From the IMG/VR virus record IMGVR_UViG_3300042900_000746, positions 1 to 64,000 of that record: DNA of 64,000 nt, one strand, 5' to 3'. A model generated the notes under the pieces. The model did no database searches. It was given only the letters and a program-made list of their open reading frames with translations, and was not told the origin of the DNA. The position numbers and the translations under genes are program-made. How positions within the stretch are numbered: position 1 is the stretch's first letter; each line of letters starts with the position of its first letter. Shown here one piece after another: positions 43,932 through 55,615 of the stretch. This DNA comes from a virus (taxonomy: Duplodnaviria; Caudoviricetes).

Positions 43932-46900
43932 TCAGTTCCAACTGTTCCCATCCATGTCTTGAAGCTCGTAAGCTATACCAGCTGTTAGATTATTGGATAT
44001 AATATTGTAAATTTCTTTTTGGTCTACAAAATAATCTTTAACTTCTTTTGGTATTCTAATTATAACATACCCACCCTTATTGTAGGCTTTGCCAGATGGG
44101 GCATAGACGTCCCAGAAAGATAGTACCTCGGGAATTGCTTCTAATAACTCATAATTTGTTTTATCTACAGTTATCCCTCCACCCTTTAACCTTAGGTCTA
44201 CAGTCTCTGGCGCTACGCTATATGGATTATTGGTTACGTAAATAGTTGCTATTGGTAGAGCGAACGGATCATATTCGGACGATCTATTGTCAAAAATGGC
44301 TGTATCGTATGTGAAGTTAATGGCGGAATCATATAAATAATCATCAATTTTAATTAAATTATTTGTATTATTTTGAATATTTTGTTTTTTATAGATATTT
44401 TTTGGAAGTACATAAATATACAATGGTTGATTATAATAAATATTATTAGAATTTAAAACAGGATTCAATGGAATTGGCACTCCATTTATGTGATTAAGCA
44501 GAATATCCCTATTGACTGTCGTGTAGTTAACTTTAACCAATTGAGAATCTTGAGGTATCATATTCTTATTGAATTCTACTAAACCACTATAGCAATCAAT
44601 ATCTCTAATTTGTGAATATGCAATCTCTACCCATTGCGAAGATACGGATTCTCTAGTGTAAATTTTAATTTGAGGTTTAATAATTCCAACTATTGAATTT
44701 CTATTATTCGTAGGATGATTCCAAGCTAAAATCGGCGTGGAGCTTACCTGAATTTTATTAGAGCTAAGTATCAATGGAGATTCATTAACAATGTCCTGAT
44801 GTCCGAAACCAAATAGTTCTGAGGAGGGGGGTTCAAATTCATTAACTGTTGTGTACTCTGCGTTTAATTCTTGATCAATATAATTCGCTTTCCATCCAGT
44901 CCATTTACGTTCAGAAGAAATAGAAATCTTTTTCCAGAAACTTCCGGTAGTTAACCGCAGTGGCCACGCATCAAACTTAGATAAATTGTCATTGATTTTT
45001 CCTACTTTAATAGCAGAATTAGAATTAGTTTTGACAGAATATACTGGGACTATTGTTCTAAGTGGAACATTTACTGGCTTGAACGTTGTGTTTAATGTTG
45101 GACCAATGTATTCATTTTTATTTTGAGTATTGCCGTCCGCATCTATCGCGCAGACTCCAATAAATATATTGTTGACACCTCTAGATAGAATATCTATATA
45201 AGTTATTTGATTTCCTAAAAATTCTTTTTCTAGAATATCATAAAAACCATAAATGAATCCATCTTGGTTTTCTATTTCATTTTTTACTATAAATGAACCG
45301 TATCTTAAATCTATCTCTTCACTATTTATTGAAGATATTCCTGTTAATTGCGTATTGATTTCAGCTGAGGTCGGTAGTCCATAAGGCGATCCACTTTGAT
45401 TGCATAGCAATAAAATTCCATCATTCACATCTACTGAGTTTCTTGAATCAGAAAAAATACGACCGTCAATTGTCCTAAGTTTGTACCCAGTTGCTAAAGA
45501 ATTGGTAATATTAAATATTTGACTTCCACTATAATAAGTAGCTGACGTAGTTAAGCTATACTGGTTACCTGATGCTGTTAACGTTACAGGGTTTCCCGTA
45601 ACAGTAATCCCGTTAGAAGTTACTGTAGTGATAGCTGCACTATTTAGTGTTACTGATGTTGGCGCACTTGCAAAATTTATCATCAGATTATCAAAAGTAT
45701 GAGTTTCATTATCATCTAGCTTATATTCACCATTTGCAAAAGTCTCAGTTTTAGTTCCCTCAAATATTTGTGGATCAGAATAGGTGATCGAACTAACATA
45801 AGAAGCACTCCTAGTTAGGTTAGAGGTAGTATATGTCTTGCTGGCATCCAAGGCAGTTGTTACGTTATTGTGAGTCTCTTCAGAGACTACTATTGCAGTT
45901 ACAAGAGTCTCTCGAGCAGGCACAGTAACCGTCTGATCGCCAGGATCGACGTCCTTAATGGTAGTTCCATAAGCTTCAATTGCCTTAATGCCAAAACCTT
46001 CGCCATAGCCGTAATACGCAACTGATCTTCCAACAACCGACACCCACATGTACTTACAGTCTTCTGCTGGCATTCCGCCCATCTGAATAACAACATCTCG
46101 ATTGAATGCATTTGCGTTTATAGAACGCAAATTTGTTTTGAATATATCTTTCCCGAAAGAAGAGGACCATCCATACCCAACAATACTAAAATTTTTCCAA
46201 AGTGGATTATCATCGGCTTGAATTTCTATTGAATTTACAATCTTTAATTTTGAAGTATCTACTTCAAAGAATATAATATCTCTAGCTTCACTTGGCCCGC
46301 CAAATCCTGTAAAAGTTATTTTCCTATATGTTTGATTGCTTTCGAGACCTGACGCAACAACGGTAGCACGAGCTGCTTGCATGTACTTAATAACTTCTGG
46401 AACTTTAGTTACATCTCTAGCCCAAGTTATCCAATTATCAAAATTAGCTTCATTCTTCCAAAACTTAGTTAAATACCATTTAGTTTCACTATCAACTTTG
46501 CCATCTTCGTATAATTGCTCGTTGTCTATTTGGAATTTTTTTACTGCCGCCTCAGTAAGTGGACCATAGATGCCATCAACTACTGATTTATATGAGCCAT
46601 GAGCAGCCAGGGTAAACTGTATATATTTTACATATTCACCAGTTGGTGTCCGATCAGATGTCCATATCTTAGTGTCTTTATGAATATCTATATCGCCAGT
46701 ATATGGGAAAACATTATTTGCATTGGAAGTATCCGTTGGCCTCAAGAATCTTAGATCATCAATAGCTGATTCAAAATTTATGCAGCTGGCACTAGTTGAT
46801 ACTATTTCTCCACTGGGTAGGGTAGGATTAGTGGGGGTTAATCTTACCGATTTTAGTTGGGCACTGAATGTAGCCGTTAATCCAGTACTTAAAGTTACAT

Positions 46901-49343
46901 CAAATGCTACGGGCTTATCTACTGCTCTAGCATAGTTATATTTAGATGTTAAATTAAATGGATAAGATCTAAAAGAATTTAATACATTTAATTCATTATT
47001 TAATCTTCGTGTACCAGAAGTACTATATTGACTATCAATAACTGCGTAGGCGCCAAAATTACTTGGTATTGTTAGCTGCGGCGAAACTTTATCTGTATAC
47101 GCGTAACATTTAATATTTGGATCTGTTACTTTAAATAAATAATAAGATGAAGGTATATTTTCATTATTAATATTTGTACTGGTATTGACTACTGTCGTAT
47201 TACTTATTATGACATCAGGATTTGTGACCTCTATGAATATTTCAACATTAGATGACGATAAACTTTGAATTATTTCCCTTTGTGCAAGTGGCAAAAAACT
47301 ACTTAAGGATGATTTATAAAAATCAAATATAGAGCTATTATTATTGATAATAGCTCTAGCATATTTAGATTCTAAATTATTAATTAATACCTGTGTAAAA
47401 TACTGTTCTTTTTCATCATCAAACAACGCATTTTGATCCATAGTCCATGACGAATCCCACTGCGTAATAAAATTATATAAAGAACTTCTGATATCTATTG
47501 AACGAGTTGCTTGACTCCTGCAATATAAAGCGTAGGAAACTATATTGTACAATAATTTAAAAGGACCCTCAACGATACCAGAATACAATGTAGTTCCACT
47601 TAGATCCGCTGCAGTGGGGCCATAGTTCGAATCGGCTACTTGCTCCGGACTATTTATGCTATAAATAGAGTTGCAATATGGCATTAGTGGGAAGGTTGTT
47701 CCAATAATATTGCCTCGAGATAATGAATCTCCACTATTCGGATAGGCCAATACTACACCTGCGCTATATGTGGATGTAGAACTCGCGCCTAAATTTAGGA
47801 ATGAGTTTACTGTTGCTGCATTATTGAAATATTTATAGTTCTTATAGGCGTTTCCCCTATATGAATAATTGGATCCATATATTCCATAGTTGTCTTTTTC
47901 AAAGATACCATCTTGTATTGTCCATCCACCATTTTTAGTATTATCTAATAAAACATTAGTATCTACAGTATCTATATAGTTGGATGAAGTTGTTGCTGAA
48001 CTTAAGCTTAATTGTGGATTTAGTACTGTGGCATTGCATGTCCCACTGCTCATATCAAGAATTAAAGTTCCATTTTTTCTTAGAAATTCTTGAATTTTGG
48101 CGTTTTGATTTGCTGTTATTGATACTGGTGGAGACCAAGCTAAAACATCAAAATTATTAAGATCATCAATAGAATCTATATCGACCTTCCAATAAGAGGC
48201 CAATGTTTTGTCTGTGCCTGTTGCGTTGGGATTAACGAATGTATATTTAGCCAAATTAAACGGAGAGTTTTGCAACCTTGCAAAAACATATGGGTTAACA
48301 GTAGAATTATTTTCTTGAGTTGATGAGCTATATAAAACTCCTACCTTAACAGTTTTTTGTACAATAGTGCCAGAAGAATCTACTTCTGAACCATAGTTAA
48401 CTTGATCAAAATTAATATTATTTCTTGTCCTGGCAATCATTCGCCAGTTAAAAACTTCAAAACTTCTATAATCTTTAATGGCTTTTGACGGTACAACTAT
48501 TTGATATCCACTTTGTTGGTTTACTTGGGAAATTAAAGTGCGATATTTATGATCTATTTTTGTAATAGAAAAATTATTTTTATCTTTATAGTTATCATCT
48601 ATAACAAATGACTCTTCTGGAATTTCGTAAAAGTATGGAATGGCATTAATTGTTTCAGTATAATTTATATTTAGATTAAATATGTTTGCGTTGTCATCGC
48701 ATTCTACTTTGTCGTATACTAATTTCAAATTATTAGGTTCATCTGAATCAAGAAGCACTATAATTCTATAGGGAAATTGATTGTTTGCAAAATTATTTAA
48801 AGTTTTAAATGGTTCTAAAAGAATTCTGTATTTTTTGATATTAGTTATTGGGTCTACATATTCTTTGTTGTCTGCACCCAAAACTTTTATATTAAGATCT
48901 TTAATTGATTCAAACGGAACATATTGCTTTAAGGATATTAAAGATATATTTGCCGGACCAGTAATAAAATATCTACTGATGTACATATAGTGAACAAAGT
49001 CACTTGCGTCCGTTTTGGTAATATCTATTTTTTCTGTGTCTGTTGGTCTGTTTAAGAATATATTTCCAACAGTAATATCATTACTTGGAAAGTTATAACT
49101 TCCATCTATTTTTTTTAAGAAACCTAGCTCGTCAGCAAAGACTATGGTTGCCTTTAATCCGTCTTCATTTGTAATTCTATTTTCTTGTATACTTCCAGAT
49201 ATATCAACCATAGAGATGTTGCTGCGTGGGCTTACCTTCGATGAGGAAAACCATGATATACCAGCAGCTTCCGTGGGAATATTTTTGCCAATTTTAACTG
49301 ACTTTTCATTGCCATCTGTTGTTAAATTTTCAAACTTTTTCAT
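43932..49343 (-). CDS. Giant virion protein (1803 aa) with internal peptidoglycan-binding domain
   Basis: VKYIQ..L...VDGIYGPLTEAAVKKFQ...DGKVD.ET (about 46470-46640); C-terminal D.R..GGG. Confidence 0.75.
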   Translation of the reverse strand: MKKFENLTTDGNEKSVKIGKNIPTEAAGISWFSSSKVSPRSNISMVDISGSIQENRITNEDGLKATIVFADELGFLKKIDGSYNFPSNDITVGNIFLNRPTDTEKIDITKTDASDFVHYMYISRYFITGPANISLISLKQYVPFESIKDLNIKVLGADNKEYVDPITNIKKYRILLEPFKTLNNFANNQFPYRIIVLLDSDEPNNLKLVYDKVECDDNANIFNLNINYTETINAIPYFYEIPEESFVIDDNYKDKNNFSITKIDHKYRTLISQVNQQSGYQIVVPSKAIKDYRSFEVFNWRMIARTRNNINFDQVNYGSEVDSSGTIVQKTVKVGVLYSSSTQENNSTVNPYVFARLQNSPFNLAKYTFVNPNATGTDKTLASYWKVDIDSIDDLNNFDVLAWSPPVSITANQNAKIQEFLRKNGTLILDMSSGTCNATVLNPQLSLSSATTSSNYIDTVDTNVLLDNTKNGGWTIQDGIFEKDNYGIYGSNYSYRGNAYKNYKYFNNAATVNSFLNLGASSTSTYSAGVVLAYPNSGDSLSRGNIIGTTFPLMPYCNSIYSINSPEQVADSNYGPTAADLSGTTLYSGIVEGPFKLLYNIVSYALYCRSQATRSIDIRSSLYNFITQWDSSWTMDQNALFDDEKEQYFTQVLINNLESKYARAIINNNSSIFDFYKSSLSSFLPLAQREIIQSLSSSNVEIFIEVTNPDVIISNTTVVNTSTNINNENIPSSYYLFKVTDPNIKCYAYTDKVSPQLTIPSNFGAYAVIDSQYSTSGTRRLNNELNVLNSFRSYPFNLTSKYNYARAVDKPVAFDVTLSTGLTATFSAQLKSVRLTPTNPTLPSGEIVSTSASCINFESAIDDLRFLRPTDTSNANNVFPYTGDIDIHKDTKIWTSDRTPTGEYVKYIQFTLAAHGSYKSVVDGIYGPLTEAAVKKFQIDNEQLYEDGKVDSETKWYLTKFWKNEANFDNWITWARDVTKVPEVIKYMQAARATVVASGLESNQTYRKITFTGFGGPSEARDIIFFEVDTSKLKIVNSIEIQADDNPLWKNFSIVGYGWSSSFGKDIFKTNLRSINANAFNRDVVIQMGGMPAEDCKYMWVSVVGRSVAYYGYGEGFGIKAIEAYGTTIKDVDPGDQTVTVPARETLVTAIVVSEETHNNVTTALDASKTYTTSNLTRSASYVSSITYSDPQIFEGTKTETFANGEYKLDDNETHTFDNLMINFASAPTSVTLNSAAITTVTSNGITVTGNPVTLTASGNQYSLTTSATYYSGSQIFNITNSLATGYKLRTIDGRIFSDSRNSVDVNDGILLLCNQSGSPYGLPTSAEINTQLTGISSINSEEIDLRYGSFIVKNEIENQDGFIYGFYDILEKEFLGNQITYIDILSRGVNNIFIGVCAIDADGNTQNKNEYIGPTLNTTFKPVNVPLRTIVPVYSVKTNSNSAIKVGKINDNLSKFDAWPLRLTTGSFWKKISISSERKWTGWKANYIDQELNAEYTTVNEFEPPSSELFGFGHQDIVNESPLILSSNKIQVSSTPILAWNHPTNNRNSIVGIIKPQIKIYTRESVSSQWVEIAYSQIRDIDCYSGLVEFNKNMIPQDSQLVKVNYTTVNRDILLNHINGVPIPLNPVLNSNNIYYNQPLYIYVLPKNIYKKQNIQNNTNNLIKIDDYLYDSAINFTYDTAIFDNRSSEYDPFALPIATIYVTNNPYSVAPETVDLRLKGGGITVDKTNYELLEAIPEVLSFWDVYAPSGKAYNKGGYVIIRIPKEVKDYFVDQKEIYNIISNNLTAGIAYELQDMDGNSWN

Positions 49344-52300
49344 TACTGTTCCTCATAATCTGGATGAGAATTCTCTAAGGTTGTTATATATTCTGGAGTT
49401 GATCCAAATAGCTTTAATTGATATTGATCAAATTTTCTTAATGGAACCCATTTTTCTGGAATCCAATTTGGTGTAGCGCCATTTGCAATAACGCTAGAAG
49501 AATCTGAATGCTTATACACGAAATTAGGAGTTGCAGTTAGATCTGAACCAGCCTGCTTGCTGTGGATGAATGAACCAGGTAAAGGCAGTCCTTCGCTAGC
49601 ATACTGCACGTTATCATAAGCTTCATTCCAATAAACGATATCACCAGATATAGTAACGGCAGTTAGTGATAAATCTTCCCCATCATTTATTAATAAGTTT
49701 CTGACTATAGTTGGATCATCAATCTCAATCTTAAGGAACCAGTGACCAGGATTGGTATTCGATTCAGAAGTAATATTATTGTTTATTGCAAAAGTGCCGT
49801 CAGAATTGGTTGTTATACTATCTGCGGGAGTTCCGTCAAAGAGGTCTAACAAAGTTCTTTCCTTAATCCAATTTAGATCTATTACGTGTTCAAATGGTCT
49901 ATTTTTCCAATAAACCCTACCTACAATTGATACATTTGTTAGCCCGTCAGCTTGGATCGAATACCTTACTGGTGTTGCTTTTACCTGTAAATGAAATTTA
50001 TTATTCATATGTATTTTAAATGGTATGACTTTTTGATATCCAGCGGTTGGTGTATCTGTAATGCCAGAAATCAATATCGAACTTTCATCCAATGTGGCAG
50101 GTATGGAGCCAGTGTATCTAACTATAGTAGTTGCAAAACCATTATCGTTTGTTTGGACTTGAGGGTCTTCAGCGTCAATCTCTGTGCTATAAATGTCAAA
50201 CGACATATTTGGTTTTAAGTTTCCGTTAATATCATAAGATACTATTGATAAATACATTAAATCTTCTGCTGAATCAGTTATATGTGCTGGTGATAGGTAG
50301 GCGTCTATCGATCCATATTCATATTCATTAGTATCAATGTAAACATAGCCTTCTTCTAAGGGATTACTAACTTGATTTATATCAAGGTCTATATTGTTAT
50401 GGTTATTCATATAATCTGATTCATAGATTATCTCATAAGAAGGAGTAGGTGACACAGTTGAAGGGGTAGTGGACAAGTATAAGTTAGCTACGTAAGAATC
50501 TTTTGCGCTGGAATAGACATCTTTATCTACATAAAAAGCGTTATTAACATAATATACGACTTCGTATTCTCTACCCTGGACTGATGGGGTAGCCTCTGAG
50601 AATGGCGAAATAACATTAGTTGCCGTACTCAAATTATTATATAAAGTTTTTCCTGTATATAAATCTTTTACAGATATTTTAGATATATTTTCATATGCCA
50701 GATATAAAGAGTTGCCACTATTTCCAAGAATATTTTCAGTATTATAAAAACTTGCCTTACCTGGTGTAGCTGAATCGGTAAATATTAAATTTCTATACTG
50801 AACAGCTGGTGTAGCTGAATCATTGGCGACATTTACTATTATAGGTGCACCGAATCTAGGTATAGAAGTTAATTCAATATTAAAAAACTTTCCAGTATGA
50901 TTTTGGGTTACTGGATTAGCATAAATATAGTGTTGGTCTTGATCAAGATATAACCAGCCGGTATTTAATCCAGTAAGATATGAACTCTCATTTAGATTAG
51001 TTCTCTTGGCATTGACGTTCACATATGTTTTTTCACTTGACGATATTGAGGAGTTTAAGCTATCTAGTAGTACCTCGGGATTATCTACATAAGCTTCTAT
51101 GCTGTTCGGTGTTGCTGCAAGTTTGACATAATTGATATCATATATATCTTCTAAATCTAAATTAAAAGAAGTTCTATTTAAATCAATAGTCTGCAAAAAT
51201 TTATCTTGATTATAGAAATAATTTTTTGATTCATTTATCTTATTGTAAGTATTATTATTTTCATCAATATAACCACTAAATACATTGGGCGTTGTGGTGG
51301 CAGTGAATATATCATTAGTAATCTTATCGAATGGATAATGAGACGAAGGGGTTGCAGCGTCAACGAGTATATAATTAGGAGTAGTAGAAGAGAAGTTAAT
51401 TGTTGCAGATGTTAGATAGTCTTTAGATCCTATCAAAGTGTTATTTGATGCATAAAATCCATACTTAATATTTGGAGATGATGGAACCAAGTATGAGTTT
51501 TGGGTATATGGATCTATTGCATATCCGCCATGAGAAGAATATGATCCAGAGCGATAAAGATCTTGTATTGCTGGAGTAGCTGCATTTATGTATAGATAGT
51601 TTAGGGATGAACCTGGTGGATATATGATCTTATCTAATAAATCATCTTTAAAAGATATAATTTTATTTTCTTTGCCGGAAGCAGATATATCATTTACGGA
51701 GTTTAATACAATATTAGAAGTTAATACATCAGAATTTTTTACCTCTTGCTTAGTTTCATAAACAGTGGATCCAATTCGTAGATTTGCATTTGTATAGTCT
51801 ATATTTGGTGATGTTAATGTGGTAGAGGTGCTAGGGCTTGGGTCGGATACATATGCTATGGGTGATGTGTTAAAAGAAGCTCTATAACCAGCAACTTCGA
51901 TTGTATCGTATGACTGTGTTCCCTGATTCCATCTAACACTATACGTAGTCTTAACGCTGGCTGCGTCATAGACACTAATTGAATTTGATGCTGGGGTAGC
52001 CTCTGTATTATAATACACGTCATTTGTTACTTTATTTCTAAACTCAAGATCGGTTAAAGTTAATCCATCTTGGTCAAATATTTTTATCAGACTAAATTCT
52101 GGACTTGCAGAGTGAGTAGATAAGAATCTATTTCCAACGTACATATCATCTCTATCTAGATAAGATAGATTGGTATAAAAAGTATTTGTTGCTGCATAGT
52201 TATCGTGGGGCGGTATAACAATTTCGTATGCTACTGCTACTCCTATGCTTTCGAACGGAACGGCAGTAAAAGACCGCACTGGACGCACGCGGATCGTGGG

Positions 52301-54433
52301 GGTCATCTTGTCGATGTTGGCGGACTGATTGCCGTTGGAGAAATTCTTGTACCACGCGAAGACGTTGCCGTTCTCAGAAGAACTCCAATAGGTGAAAGTA
52401 GAAAAATCGTCGCCAAGAGCAACACGGTTTGTATAAATTTCGGCAAGTTCATCTTTCGACGGCAAGAACCAATCTGATTGTCCGCCAGAAACTAGTTCAC
52501 TACAATACACTGCGGCCGATGTTGCTGCCACATTTCCTGATTGAGCAACAATATCAATAGTATTTTGTGCACCCGTACCAATCGCTGTACCGTCAGCGCC
52601 AGAAGCTGCCGAATACTGGTTCGCGCCAGTAGACCAAGTTCTTTGTACTTGTGTTGATACTGGAGCTACCTCAAAATATCTACCCGTAGAGTTTCCTGCC
52701 GTAGATGGGGTAATAAAAATCTTGCCACCACCAGGACCAATATCCCCAATTGCGTAGGATCCGGTACCAGCTTTTCTTCTGGGGGCTTCGTAATCTGAAA
52801 CTGTTCTAGTATAATTTAAATACCAAGAATAATGGATGTCTACTGGAGAATATACATACGAGGGGGTACTACTTATTTTTGTTCCGCCAATTTCAATATG
52901 TCCAGAAAATGATACCGTTGCTGATTCAACTGGATCTATCATTAACTTAGCGTCGTCAAAATCACCAACACCTGGTTGATAGTACTCAGCTGGCAGATCT
53001 GTATCTGTATCGTAAATTGCTGCAATTCGGCTTATACCTTCACCTAGTGTTCCAGCATAATCCCATACTCCATCGCCCCAATTAACATATCCTAAATTAC
53101 TTGGATATTTAATATTCAATTCTTCTACTAACTGCTTAAAGGCTGGAAGTGGCTTACCATCTTCGGAGAAATAATCTGCTGAAGATTCAATATCAGATAT
53201 TTCTAAAATCTCTGGAGTTGCGCCTGAATAATCAGAATCCGGCGTGGAACCGTATGCTCTCCATAGGTCTAACTCTCTTCTAAGAGTTTTCTTGTAGGCG
53301 TCCATAGAGACACCAGGAATGTTCTTAGTGACATCTAAAATTCTTTTTCTATAATTAGAGTTTGACTCTAGATTAAGTCTCGGCAGGCTGACTCGAGCAC
53401 CAAATTCATCAAAGTCATTATATATATTTAAAGGGTCTTGACCATATGTGGTGTTATTAACTTTTAATATTGAAAAATTTCTCATTGTTATTATTTGACG
53501 ATCCACCGCATTATAATAAAATACATAATCTGTAGATCGAGAACTAAAGAATTCCAATAAAGAAGAAACTCTACTCAACGGTATATCATCGCCAACTATT
53601 GTATTGATATTAGCTGGAACATTATATGATACATAACACCATGCTAGTTCATTGATATCTGCGCTATTGATATAGGCATTAATTCCATATAGATCAATCT
53701 TACCGGATATATAATCTAAATTTTCTCCAACTAGGGCATTTAGAAATGCACCGCCAGTTGAGTTGGGGGTCGCTAGACTCGGCGTAGCATCGGCCATTGA
53801 GTCTTCGAATAATGCTGTCCAAGAAGGAAATCTTTTAAGAATATTTCTTACAGAATTAGATATTACTGGAGAAATTGGATTATAAATTCCTATTTCTAAA
53901 TAAAATACTAAACCAAGTTGATTGATGTTTATTTCATCAGCATATATTTCAAGTTCTACTTTTATATATGGCTTTGCATTTCTGATAAAAATAGCGTTGG
54001 TATCTCCACGAAGGGAAGATTTTAGCCACGGTCCATCTTCATCATCTGACTCATACATCTGAATATTAAAAGTGGGAGATATAGTTCCTGGTATATTTGT
54101 AAAAATATGCCTATAACTTAGAATATCTATTCTTGAAGAAGTGTCTATAAACCTTTGAACGTTAGGAGTGGCTTCTTCGTATATTATTTCTCCAATGTCT
54201 GTCATATATATAGCGTTGGAGGTTAGCGGAGTATGGCCACCCAATGTAGATGGTGAAGTCAATTCTGTTCCGACGAATGTTTTATCACCTATCAAATCTA
54301 AGCCAGATGGTGACCTTATAGATGAGTAGTTCTTATACTGATTATTGCTATATAAATTTATAGAGTCAGTTGTCCATATATTGCCAGATTTATTAAAATC
54401 AGAACTTTTTAAAAGTAACAAATATTGCTTCAT
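49343..54433 (-). CDS. Baseplate wedge-like protein (1696 aa) with inserted C-type lectin (Lcl/DUF1566-like) domain
   Basis: FDEFG..VSLPRL.LESN.NYRKRI (wedge gpI/gp7-like), follows baseplate J; aa about 560-722: YAIGDIGPGGG.IF, DWFLPSKDEL, YWSSSE, VRPVRSF. Confidence 0.75.
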   Translation of the reverse strand: MKQYLLLLKSSDFNKSGNIWTTDSINLYSNNQYKNYSSIRSPSGLDLIGDKTFVGTELTSPSTLGGHTPLTSNAIYMTDIGEIIYEEATPNVQRFIDTSSRIDILSYRHIFTNIPGTISPTFNIQMYESDDEDGPWLKSSLRGDTNAIFIRNAKPYIKVELEIYADEININQLGLVFYLEIGIYNPISPVISNSVRNILKRFPSWTALFEDSMADATPSLATPNSTGGAFLNALVGENLDYISGKIDLYGINAYINSADINELAWCYVSYNVPANINTIVGDDIPLSRVSSLLEFFSSRSTDYVFYYNAVDRQIITMRNFSILKVNNTTYGQDPLNIYNDFDEFGARVSLPRLNLESNSNYRKRILDVTKNIPGVSMDAYKKTLRRELDLWRAYGSTPDSDYSGATPEILEISDIESSADYFSEDGKPLPAFKQLVEELNIKYPSNLGYVNWGDGVWDYAGTLGEGISRIAAIYDTDTDLPAEYYQPGVGDFDDAKLMIDPVESATVSFSGHIEIGGTKISSTPSYVYSPVDIHYSWYLNYTRTVSDYEAPRRKAGTGSYAIGDIGPGGGKIFITPSTAGNSTGRYFEVAPVSTQVQRTWSTGANQYSAASGADGTAIGTGAQNTIDIVAQSGNVAATSAAVYCSELVSGGQSDWFLPSKDELAEIYTNRVALGDDFSTFTYWSSSENGNVFAWYKNFSNGNQSANIDKMTPTIRVRPVRSFTAVPFESIGVAVAYEIVIPPHDNYAATNTFYTNLSYLDRDDMYVGNRFLSTHSASPEFSLIKIFDQDGLTLTDLEFRNKVTNDVYYNTEATPASNSISVYDAASVKTTYSVRWNQGTQSYDTIEVAGYRASFNTSPIAYVSDPSPSTSTTLTSPNIDYTNANLRIGSTVYETKQEVKNSDVLTSNIVLNSVNDISASGKENKIISFKDDLLDKIIYPPGSSLNYLYINAATPAIQDLYRSGSYSSHGGYAIDPYTQNSYLVPSSPNIKYGFYASNNTLIGSKDYLTSATINFSSTTPNYILVDAATPSSHYPFDKITNDIFTATTTPNVFSGYIDENNNTYNKINESKNYFYNQDKFLQTIDLNRTSFNLDLEDIYDINYVKLAATPNSIEAYVDNPEVLLDSLNSSISSSEKTYVNVNAKRTNLNESSYLTGLNTGWLYLDQDQHYIYANPVTQNHTGKFFNIELTSIPRFGAPIIVNVANDSATPAVQYRNLIFTDSATPGKASFYNTENILGNSGNSLYLAYENISKISVKDLYTGKTLYNNLSTATNVISPFSEATPSVQGREYEVVYYVNNAFYVDKDVYSSAKDSYVANLYLSTTPSTVSPTPSYEIIYESDYMNNHNNIDLDINQVSNPLEEGYVYIDTNEYEYGSIDAYLSPAHITDSAEDLMYLSIVSYDINGNLKPNMSFDIYSTEIDAEDPQVQTNDNGFATTIVRYTGSIPATLDESSILISGITDTPTAGYQKVIPFKIHMNNKFHLQVKATPVRYSIQADGLTNVSIVGRVYWKNRPFEHVIDLNWIKERTLLDLFDGTPADSITTNSDGTFAINNNITSESNTNPGHWFLKIEIDDPTIVRNLLINDGEDLSLTAVTISGDIVYWNEAYDNVQYASEGLPLPGSFIHSKQAGSDLTATPNFVYKHSDSSSVIANGATPNWIPEKWVPLRKFDQYQLKLFGSTPEYITTLENSHPDYEEQ
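52268..52390 (-). other. Candidate DGR variable region (VR)
   Basis: Between YWSSSE and VRPVRSF, 19 of 28 codons end in C and none in A; local GC is sharply higher than in the flanks. Confidence 0.7.
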
Positions 54434-54445
54434 GCAAAAACCTTT

Positions 54446-55615
54446 TTAATAATTAGAAGATCCTATTATAACAGAATATATATTCACACTTCCAGCTGTA
54501 ACGTATTCTTTTATACTATTTGGCATAAAATCTCTTAATGGTAGCTCTTTGCCATCAGCTGTAAATGTATTAATAGTGACGCCTCTTACAAGATCGGAAG
54601 AAAGCTTTATTTGTTGTTCTATTTCAGATAATGAAACAGTATTTCCAATAGTCATAGAATTTAAATATCGCTTAACAAACATCGCTGCCTGATTTCGCAC
54701 TCCATTAATTATAGTATCTGAGTTACCTGAGGGAATGGTTATTGTAGCTGAAACGTTAATGCTAATTTTCTCTGCTACTCTTACATTGAATCTGACACCA
54801 ACAGGCTTAACAGCACTGATTGCACTTAGAATTGCTTGTGGCAAAGCTTTGATCGCAGATGAAACCTCAGGAACTACAATGACGTCACATGACCCTATTC
54901 CATAAGAGGCTTCACGTATCCTTACGTCTTTCACTCCTTTAACCGAAAGGGCTGCAAATCTTACGGATTCGACTGTGCCTGGAGCCTTAGTCTTCATGGA
55001 AGCTAGTATTCTTCTACGATAATTATCATCAGACTCTGATGTAATATTGGAGTAAATTTCCTTGGGGTTATTGGAGAAAACAACTACTGTTGGCGGTGCA
55101 ATAAAATTATGTTTAGTGAGCGAATTTTTAGGGGCAACATATGAGTTATCTGAGAAATTTGGTTCAGCCCTACCATAGGATCTTGTAGCGCCAGCTGGTA
55201 TAGAAACAGTCGAAGATAATTTGTAGCTATATTGTTTAGTGGTAAAATTAGACACGTCATTGTATAATAATGTACCAGCTGGTATTGTTATTCCTGCGCT
55301 GTGGGGTTTATCTATGAAAAATTCTACGTTAAAAGATTGTCTTTCTTCTGCGACAAAATTTGTAACGGACTTTCTTGAGACACCATATAGATCTCCAATT
55401 AAGTCTAAATTCCTACCAGACGCTGTACTTAAGTTACTTTGCGAAACAGTAAATCTAAATGCCTCATAAAGATCAGATATCTCCGCACTAACTGACTCTG
55501 CGAAGGCTCTAGCAATAGAGCCTGGATAAATGGCTGTAATACCAGCATTTTTTTCAAGCCCATTAAGTATGGAGACTAGGATTTCTGATTTATTTTTAAC
55601 ACCGTAAATAGCCAT
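54446..55615 (-). CDS. Baseplate J-like protein
   Basis: GSIARA..E, ASGR.LDLIG..YGV.R, IPAGT, ESDDNYRRRI, GT..SV..AAL.V.GV. Confidence 0.9.
   Translation of the reverse strand: MAIYGVKNKSEILVSILNGLEKNAGITAIYPGSIARAFAESVSAEISDLYEAFRFTVSQSNLSTASGRNLDLIGDLYGVSRKSVTNFVAEERQSFNVEFFIDKPHSAGITIPAGTLLYNDVSNFTTKQYSYKLSSTVSIPAGATRSYGRAEPNFSDNSYVAPKNSLTKHNFIAPPTVVVFSNNPKEIYSNITSESDDNYRRRILASMKTKAPGTVESVRFAALSVKGVKDVRIREASYGIGSCDVIVVPEVSSAIKALPQAILSAISAVKPVGVRFNVRVAEKISINVSATITIPSGNSDTIINGVRNQAAMFVKRYLNSMTIGNTVSLSEIEQQIKLSSDLVRGVTINTFTADGKELPLRDFMPNSIKEYVTAGSVNIYSVIIGSSNY

Follow-up and report, generated by a model that had tools for sequence, protein, structure and literature searches.

The diversity-generating retroelement (DGR) of Bordetella phage BPP-1 has its variable region (VR) at the C terminus of the target, its cassette adjacent to the target, and a downstream hairpin acting in cis. 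According to the prevailing view, as set out in the consulted portions of two surveys (PMC8144416, PMC5758913), DGR targets lie on the replicon of their own cassette, the VR is C-terminal, and the cis elements are free of coding constraint. In these portions, Wu et al. 2018 argue against the occurrence of remote targets in phage DGRs and against joint inheritance of a target and a cassette on separate replicons (PMC5758913), and Roux et al. 2021 describe their survey as unable to detect remote targets and tie C-terminal VRs to cis-element constraints (PMC8144416). VRs with the DUF1566 fold are assigned there to class CLec2 together with DUF823 and Fib_succ_major, Legionella LdtA being an example, and one internal CLec2 VR is given among 372 DGRs (PMC5758913); several remote targets are named for Treponema denticola-type DGRs (PMC5758913, PMC4891356). 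The C-terminal domain of Lcl from Legionella pneumophila (PDB 8q4e) is described as C-type-lectin-like in the consulted portion of PMC11162425. Here we describe what is almost certainly, on its sequence, a genuine DGR variable region located in the middle of a virion structural protein of 1696 amino acids (aa), encoded by a Caudoviricetes virus record (IMG/VR IMGVR_UViG_3300042900_000746). The window, i.e., the whole stretch of 64,000 nucleotides that was analyzed, is the first 64 kb of this 133,870-base record, which is rated 63% complete. An earlier note, made from the letters of the window, had drawn attention to the lectin domain that carries this region.

As far as the consulted portions of these papers describe the known systems, the locus resembles the CLec2/LdtA class in that the VR ends a DUF1566 fold, follows the logic of an AAC-rich template repeat (TR), has constant ends, and belongs to a family with a cassette composed of bAvd, TR, and reverse transcriptase (RT); unlike that class, the window VR is internal (976 aa are located downstream), resides in a phage structural protein, and has no cassette on the 134-kb record. 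As in Treponema denticola-type DGRs, one cassette family is accompanied by many non-adjacent VRs (37 of 41 here have no Avd or RT within 2 kb), but those targets are on the chromosome of the cassette, whereas here a phage carries the target and cellular DNA the matching cassette. Features in common with BPP-1 Mtd (PMC5758913) are a phage lectin-fold receptor-binding tip, which is predicted here, diversification at TR adenines, and a GC-rich 3' VR end common with the TR; in contrast to BPP-1, the window VR is followed by neither a stop codon nor a significant hairpin (z 0.42) and is without a cassette. With Lcl it has the same Pfam family and fold in common, and one cellular target of the family (locus L162) also has the layout of collagen repeats plus Lcl_C; Lcl itself is a trimeric glycosaminoglycan adhesin whose domain is C-terminal and not hypervariable (PMC11162425), whereas the domain in the window is internal and a predicted binder. 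The locus is therefore of interest as an apparently DGR-written VR mid-protein in a core virion gene, with no RT seen on the phage and the template family in cellular DNA. We found no published report of host cassettes writing phage genes, in a search that did not extend to the supplements of the two surveys, where similar orphan or internal VRs may be listed.

The VR corresponds to codons 677–720 (52274..52405, minus strand), which align to the TR of loci L097, L112, and L161 from 'TTT TC..' to the final CGG; these limits follow from the extension of the TR in the 5' direction through the YWSSS codons. Its core, codons 687–720 (52274..52375, minus strand), is a string of 34 codons from GAG to CGG, 19 of which end with C, 11 with G, 3 with T, and one (CCA) with A; the first 28 of them include 18 ending with C and none ending with A. 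The letters of this string had been quoted exactly in the earlier note, but its counts were slightly off, because the string has 34 codons rather than 28 and does contain one A-ending codon. The GC content at third codon positions (GC3) is 0.87 in the core, and likewise in codons 691–720, against 0.25 for the whole gene and at most 0.37 in every other 30-codon bin. When codons 687–720 were compared with the TRs (L097, L112, L131, L161, and L185), mismatches were present at 18 of 40 TR adenines but at only 3 of 56 other bases (Fisher p 6e-6), and this concentration on TR adenines strongly supports the DGR origin that the earlier note had proposed. An error-prone RT would copy such a VR from RNA of an AAC-rich TR with A-to-N changes, and A-to-N copying of this kind would explain both the C-ending codons and the adenine-linked substitutions.

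The VR belongs to a large family. A protein search with the inserted domain gave 77 viral loci, in a subset of which the run of codons ending with C or G starts right after YWSS[ST]E and ends at VRPVR. A scaffold pattern written in IUPAC code (58 letters, 27 of them specified, with N at positions 1–2 of NNC codons) matched 5 viral, 73 metagenome, and 25 genome stretches, comprising 80 distinct VR 58-mers and 12 TR-like entries (4 distinct 58-mers). Third positions are common codon by codon to the about 80 VRs recovered by this pattern, while positions 1–2 vary. In several loci, an AAC-rich TR is found 724 bases downstream of a C-terminal VR, and in L162 the order is a target (433 aa, collagen repeat and Lcl_C), bAvd (PF22296, 1e-16), TR, and RT (RVT_1, 4.9e-19). 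The AAC-rich TR that the earlier note had predicted beside an RT/Avd is thus present, nearly in the form foreseen there. Two loci show peculiarities of their own. The first six codons of the variable part of the L161 TR (L161:2720-2740) resemble its own VR (L161:1996-2016) and not the consensus TR, for which reverse flow of information, recombination, and an assembly mix of two repeats are candidate causes. A viral protein of 1210 aa (L011:2989-6621) has three tandem DUF1566 domains, and a VR with C-ending codons is present only in the last one (GC3 0.58 vs. 0.33–0.35).

The domain carrying the window VR is an Lcl_C/DUF1566 C-type-lectin-like insert at aa 557–731 (52241..52765, minus strand). 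Pfam Lcl_C (PF07603, DUF1566) is matched at aa 632–720 (37.3 bits against a cut-off of 34.9, E 3.9e-9), and a phrog_4245 match spans aa 558–723 of the 1696-aa protein. A 26-sequence profile of the domain found 8q4e in PDB (E 9.6e-15), and the same structure was the best Foldseek match (E 4.6e-6, TM score 0.67 on the target) of an AlphaFold model of the domain with a predicted local distance difference test score of 86.4 and a predicted TM score of 0.82; weaker matches were intimin/invasin and other C-type-lectin-like domains. The VR is thus placed on a C-type-lectin scaffold, whose ends, YWSSSE and VRPVR, do not vary among about 80 VRs, and the inserted module is most likely a receptor- or glycan-binding tip. 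Five viral contigs and L026 contain orthologues of the 1696-aa protein, and six orthologues were aligned. The insert of about 175 aa is present in the window and in L002 (99% identical) and is cleanly missing from L003 (93–95%), L004/L005 (85–91%), and L006 (44–60%); L026 (50% identical over its full length) likewise carries an insert at this position, where the VR-equivalent part has a GC3 of 0.37 and no compositional signal. The earlier note had placed a lectin domain mid-protein and had suggested comparing orthologues with and without it; Pfam, PHROG, and the clean indel agree with that placement, and only its bounds had to be refined. Outside the VR, the domain is 34% identical to that of the cellular target, with a GC3 of 0.23–0.37, while the VR is near-identical to the TR at non-A positions; because of this disparity, the VR has evidently been overwritten rather than inherited together with the domain. 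The domain DNA had no blastn match in 50,697 phage records.

A cassette that could have written this VR was searched for in the phage and its relatives. The VR matched only itself when compared with the whole record by blastn, and no repeat within the window involves it. An adenine-tolerant scan of both strands of the record gave no TR, the best candidate having 26 non-A mismatches in 102 bases; profile searches of the 133,870 bases gave neither an RVT_1 RT nor Avd (PF05635) or bAvd (PF22296); and tblastn with the cassette RT and Avd gave nothing better than E 4 in the record. The statement in the earlier note that no RT or TR is located nearby is therefore true for the entire record. RVT_1 was not found in the 69-kb record of a sister phage and three other orthologue records (that of L005 was not among these), in 10 records carrying related domains, or in 17 further relatives reached via marker genes at the end of the record, 4 of which are 97–100% complete. 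One of the 17 is a 99%-identical contig running about 12.7 kb past the left end of the record. None of the 17 has the inserted domain, and because of this they say little about the lineage that bears the insert. Within 6 kb of the domain in the 77 viral loci (80 candidate VRs), the adenine-tolerant search also found no TR, the best candidate having 24 non-A mismatches in 105 bases. When viral contigs and 260 loci were searched with a 3' pattern made for the 34-codon VR, only the sister contig matched, and a 5' scaffold pattern able to catch a 34-codon TR recovered in metagenomes only TRs of 32 codons. Relatives with direct terminal repeats are 202–216 kb, and the genome size of this phage is put at about 210 kb. 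The distances from the gene to the two ends of the record are 49 and 79 kb.

Matching cassettes occur elsewhere. The contig with the L162 cassette (G041:C63) carries upstream an aldehyde dehydrogenase, a pyridoxal-phosphate enzyme, seven nuo-type genes, an ABC transporter, and acetyl-CoA synthetase; phage genes were not seen upstream of the cassette on this contig, and this matching cassette is chromosomal in a metagenome-assembled genome (MAG) of a freshwater Actinomycetota. TR-bearing loci have 47–50% GC, and cassette genes have a GC3 of 0.51–0.54; window-type loci, at 35.7% GC, are the lowest among the scaffold matches. Among the 41 distinct VRs having at least 1.9 kb downstream, only four have Avd/RT in the locus, and RVT_1 was found in two of the ten genomes with VR contigs, i.e., that of the cassette itself and bin G038, the latter being set aside as a mixed bin (85 RVT_1 matches). 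In 2.9 million viral contigs, a search that detects close relatives only gave no RT exceeding 52% identity to that of the cassette. Low-GC viral contigs that bear DGRs use other templates; two of them at about 30% GC (L186 and L187) have complete phage-borne DGRs, with VR and TR 681–683 bases apart and mismatches at TR adenines of 20/20 and 22/24, respectively. Their VR class is different, ending with ..GFSVRCLRN, and L187 also has a long array of repeats with an 18-base period upstream. A separate observation concerns a 2.3-Mb MAG (G035) in which at least eight contigs each carry a different canonical VR (L163, L165, L169, L170, L172, L176, L179, and L183) and no RVT_1 was found; its record titles indicate gut Bifidobacterium, whereas other matches are labeled Actinomycetota/acIV.

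Internal VRs are also found in other phages. In the contigs L014 and L024, the gene after a phrog_6 baseplate gene encodes a protein of about 600 aa that carries an internal VR. Over 7.7 kb these contigs share 96.6% identity, but a VR stretch of 78 bases has 36 differences between them, and compared with the cellular TR their VRs are changed at 21–22 of 40 A sites with two non-A changes inside the VR. The VRs of these two contigs have been fully rewritten, so rewriting does take place at internal phage VRs. In the records of L024 and of L015 (99.99% identical to the contig of L014), which are 39% and 15% complete, respectively, RVT_1 was not found.

The 3' boundary of the window VR (52263..52288, minus strand), a candidate site resembling the initiation of mutagenic homing (IMH) element, is composed of 15 bases (GTGCGTCCAGTGCGG) common to TRs and most VRs plus 11 in-frame bases encoding S-F-T-A, which take the place occupied in canonical targets by the stop codon and spacer. 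Over its last 15 bases the VR is identical to the TR, and the next bases are TCTTTT against GGTTTT in the TR, a difference that would correspond to the one between IMH and IMH*. An in-frame TCTTTTACTGC after the VR end is common to the window and the rewritten internal VRs L084 and L087, and it follows the VRs of L014 and L024; the whole window boundary (15 + 11 bases) is the same as that of rewritten internal phage VRs except for one base. Canonical VRs have, after their stop codon, CTATTTA-like repeats and a strong hairpin (z -4.9 and -3.2), whereas no significant hairpin was found downstream of internal VRs (z 0.42 for the window, -0.56 for L084, and 0.77 for L086). The hairpin was considered as a cis element and set aside as non-discriminating, since canonical hairpins look like terminators and the rewritten L084 type has none; for the same reason, the canonical hairpin would be dispensable or a mere terminator. 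In canonical loci, such as L090:420-530 (minus strand) and L161:2075-2185, the stop codon is followed by between two and four CTATTTA-like repeats and then by a strong hairpin, which has a loop of the TTCG type, and a run of T; dozens of contigs have kept this arrangement.

Comparison with the sister phage and with lake populations gives information on the recent history of the VR. The window and the sister differ at 93 bases. The flanks (codons 1–556 and 721–1696) show 0.8–0.9% base divergence with 29 synonymous and 10 nonsynonymous codon changes; the N-terminal part of the insert (codons 557–654) shows 16% with 30 and 8, respectively, which points to a recombinant patch; and the VR (codons 677–720) shows 3.8% with 0 and 5. 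The five nonsynonymous VR changes compare with 0.29 expected (P 1.3e-5). Most non-A substitutions are common to both VRs, and because of this we consider that both descend from one written VR without independent rewriting. The stretch is present in 20 lake-water runs (20 studies, possibly few campaigns), and contigs of four lake runs have a VR identical to that of the window, their sole differences being at 52847 and 52865; in runs X17, X18, and X20, stretches without cover were left out of the interpretation. Short contigs of canonical family VRs occur in the same lake runs as the phage.

On balance, we lean slightly to the reading that the VR is an orphan, now static, which may have entered by retrohoming in trans or with a recombination patch. 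The writer would not be on the phage; matching cassettes (target-bAvd-TR-RT) were found only in 47–50% GC DNA. Retrohoming in trans would have taken place inside a cassette-bearing cell, or else a short recombination patch would have brought in an already written VR, and since then the orphan VR would have remained essentially static, with drift or selection acting only at former adenine sites. The population data, with the same VR in four runs, are explained no less well by the fallback of the earlier note, a VR that was captured and is now frozen, than by its first proposal. That first proposal, a remote internal target served by a cassette elsewhere, has held in that the VR is internal and no cassette is near, but a cassette of the phage itself has not been borne out by the searches, which gave no RT, Avd, or TR in the 134 kb or sister contigs, nothing in the four complete relatives, and no 34-codon TR. 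Several points weigh against an orphan VR. All five differences to the sister are nonsynonymous and coincide with TR adenines (one falls in an inserted codon), and selection on the binding face fits them as well as weak DGR action does. The word static applies at the consensus level, because rare variants are not retained in Logan contigs, and one run, X1, may represent the source sample. Recent writing is favored because all 19 C-ending codons are intact despite the gene-wide GC3 background of 0.25. The window VR has 34 codons whereas all five distinct TRs recovered have 32, and two further non-A mismatches to the TR are seen by eye upstream of codon 687; because of this length difference and the non-A mismatches, the cognate TR could be phage-borne, and this applies equally to the other 14 of the 15 VRs with odd length. 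Because the record is only 63% complete, a cassette could also lie in the missing ~75 kb, and the chromosomal context was examined for one cassette only.

An alternative is that the phage has its own remote DGR, still diversifying this VR, with a 34-codon-TR cassette in the unassembled ~37% of the genome at more than 49 kb or more than 79 kb from the VR. Besides the incompleteness of the record, the undecayed third positions, and the restriction of sister differences to TR-adenine sites, this alternative draws on the fact that non-adjacent targets are usual in the family (the 4 of 41 mentioned above) and that 15 of 82 VRs classed by length, including that of the window, have odd length, so that TR variants of other lengths must exist beyond those sampled. 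We nevertheless regard it as decidedly improbable, because RVT_1 is missing from the 134 kb, from the 69 kb of the sister, from the contig reaching about 12.7 kb past the left end, and from four complete relatives of 202–216 kb (which also lack the domain), no close relative of the cassette RT was found among the viral contigs, the TR-bearing loci differ in GC content from the 35.7% here, and, in the consulted portion of PMC5758913, phage-associated non-adjacent targets are nearly always within 50 kb. A live target in trans, for which the DGR cassette of the host or of a co-resident element would supply TR cDNA that repeatedly retrohomes into the phage VR during infection, is rather unlikely but has a parallel in L014/L024, where a Baseplate_J-like gene is followed by a gene whose VR has been rewritten with changes concentrated at A sites, where the records of L015 and L024 show no RT, and whose type of 3' boundary the window has except for one base; the chromosomal location of a matching cassette and the canonical family VRs in the same lake runs are also in its favor. 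The parallel is weakened by the fact that the L014/L024 contigs, at 15–39% completeness, may carry their own cassette, and the search for host clues gave nothing: no WhiB gene was found in the phage record, and the GC-richer end of the record gave no DNA match in nine VR-bearing MAGs. The 35.7% GC against 47–50% for cassette DNA, the VR unchanged in contigs of four runs, the non-A substitutions, most of them common to window and sister, which imply no independent rewriting since their split, and the failure to recover a 34-codon TR also speak against continued writing. An origin without any DGR, in which a GC-rich donor contributed the patch by gene conversion or ordinary horizontal transfer, or in which codon usage is locally odd, would suit the mosaic structure of the insert, where the strongly diverged, mostly synonymous codons 557–654 between flanks of 0.8–0.9% divergence imply frequent recombination inside the domain, and the phage does encode RecA. 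It is, however, very improbable, because the patch matches the TR at non-A positions and deviates at adenines, third positions are common to about 80 VRs while positions 1–2 vary, and the GC3 of the VR (0.87) exceeds even that of the cassette genes themselves.

A broader proposal, which we put forward tentatively and think rather unlikely, is that infecting phages, including this phage, have the lectin tips inside their baseplate-module proteins rewritten in trans by chromosomal DGR cassettes of freshwater Actinomycetota. If it is true, this would be cross-replicon mutagenic retrohoming, by which an RT-less phage borrows the hypermutation machinery of its host to retune a receptor-binding site, and writing in trans would explain internal VRs without canonical downstream elements. 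Host-encoded retroelements could then drive the evolution of phage host range, surveys demanding an RT beside the VR would miss a whole class of targets, and the minimal cis requirement for retrohoming would be smaller than assumed. If the VR is instead a fossil, it still documents hypervariable lectin tips captured as modular inserts in baseplate proteins.

The gene carrying the insert (49343..54433, minus strand) belongs to the baseplate module. Directly upstream is a Baseplate_J/baseplate wedge subunit gene of the gp6 type (54446..55615, minus strand; phrog_6 E 8.7e-39, PF04865 E 2.8e-15), and this order, a phrog_6 gene and then a VR-bearing gene, is repeated in phage contig L024. Profile matches of the 1696-aa protein are limited to phrog_21059 ('virion structural protein') at aa 223–392, plus the phrog_4245 and Lcl_C matches of the inserted domain, and tblastn against the 50,697 phage records gave four weak matches, all to proteins of large Bacillus and Moorella phages labeled as structural or hypothetical. 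No similarity to any known wedge subunit was found by these profile and tblastn searches, and the name baseplate wedge protein, used in the earlier note, derives from synteny with the Baseplate_J gene alone. L004/L005 (L004/L005:3001-9162) carry two further inserts at different positions, one of about 180 aa and one of about 330 aa, with repeated 'GSGSGAVFTI..GGSNYQVGNTITIPG' units and no match to a Pfam family. Because such large inserts are carried there, the protein evidently tolerates spliced-in modules, and it looks like a platform for swappable modules.

The next gene downstream (43932-49343, minus strand) encodes 1803 aa with a peptidoglycan-binding domain (PF01471) at aa 902–954 and endolysin-like PHROG matches at aa 876–993, which suggests a virion-associated wall-degrading protein. 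At the other end of the record, outside the window, positions 126000-133870 (L198:6000-13870) have 47–50% GC against about 35% elsewhere, and a gene for a ClpB-like AAA protein and the recA gene are located just before this part, at about 120.5–123.6 kb. The open reading frames in the GC-richer end, including one of 808 aa, match no Pfam family. Because the 808-aa frame has a 94% orthologue in a 196-kb relative, we judge that this end is not chimeric.

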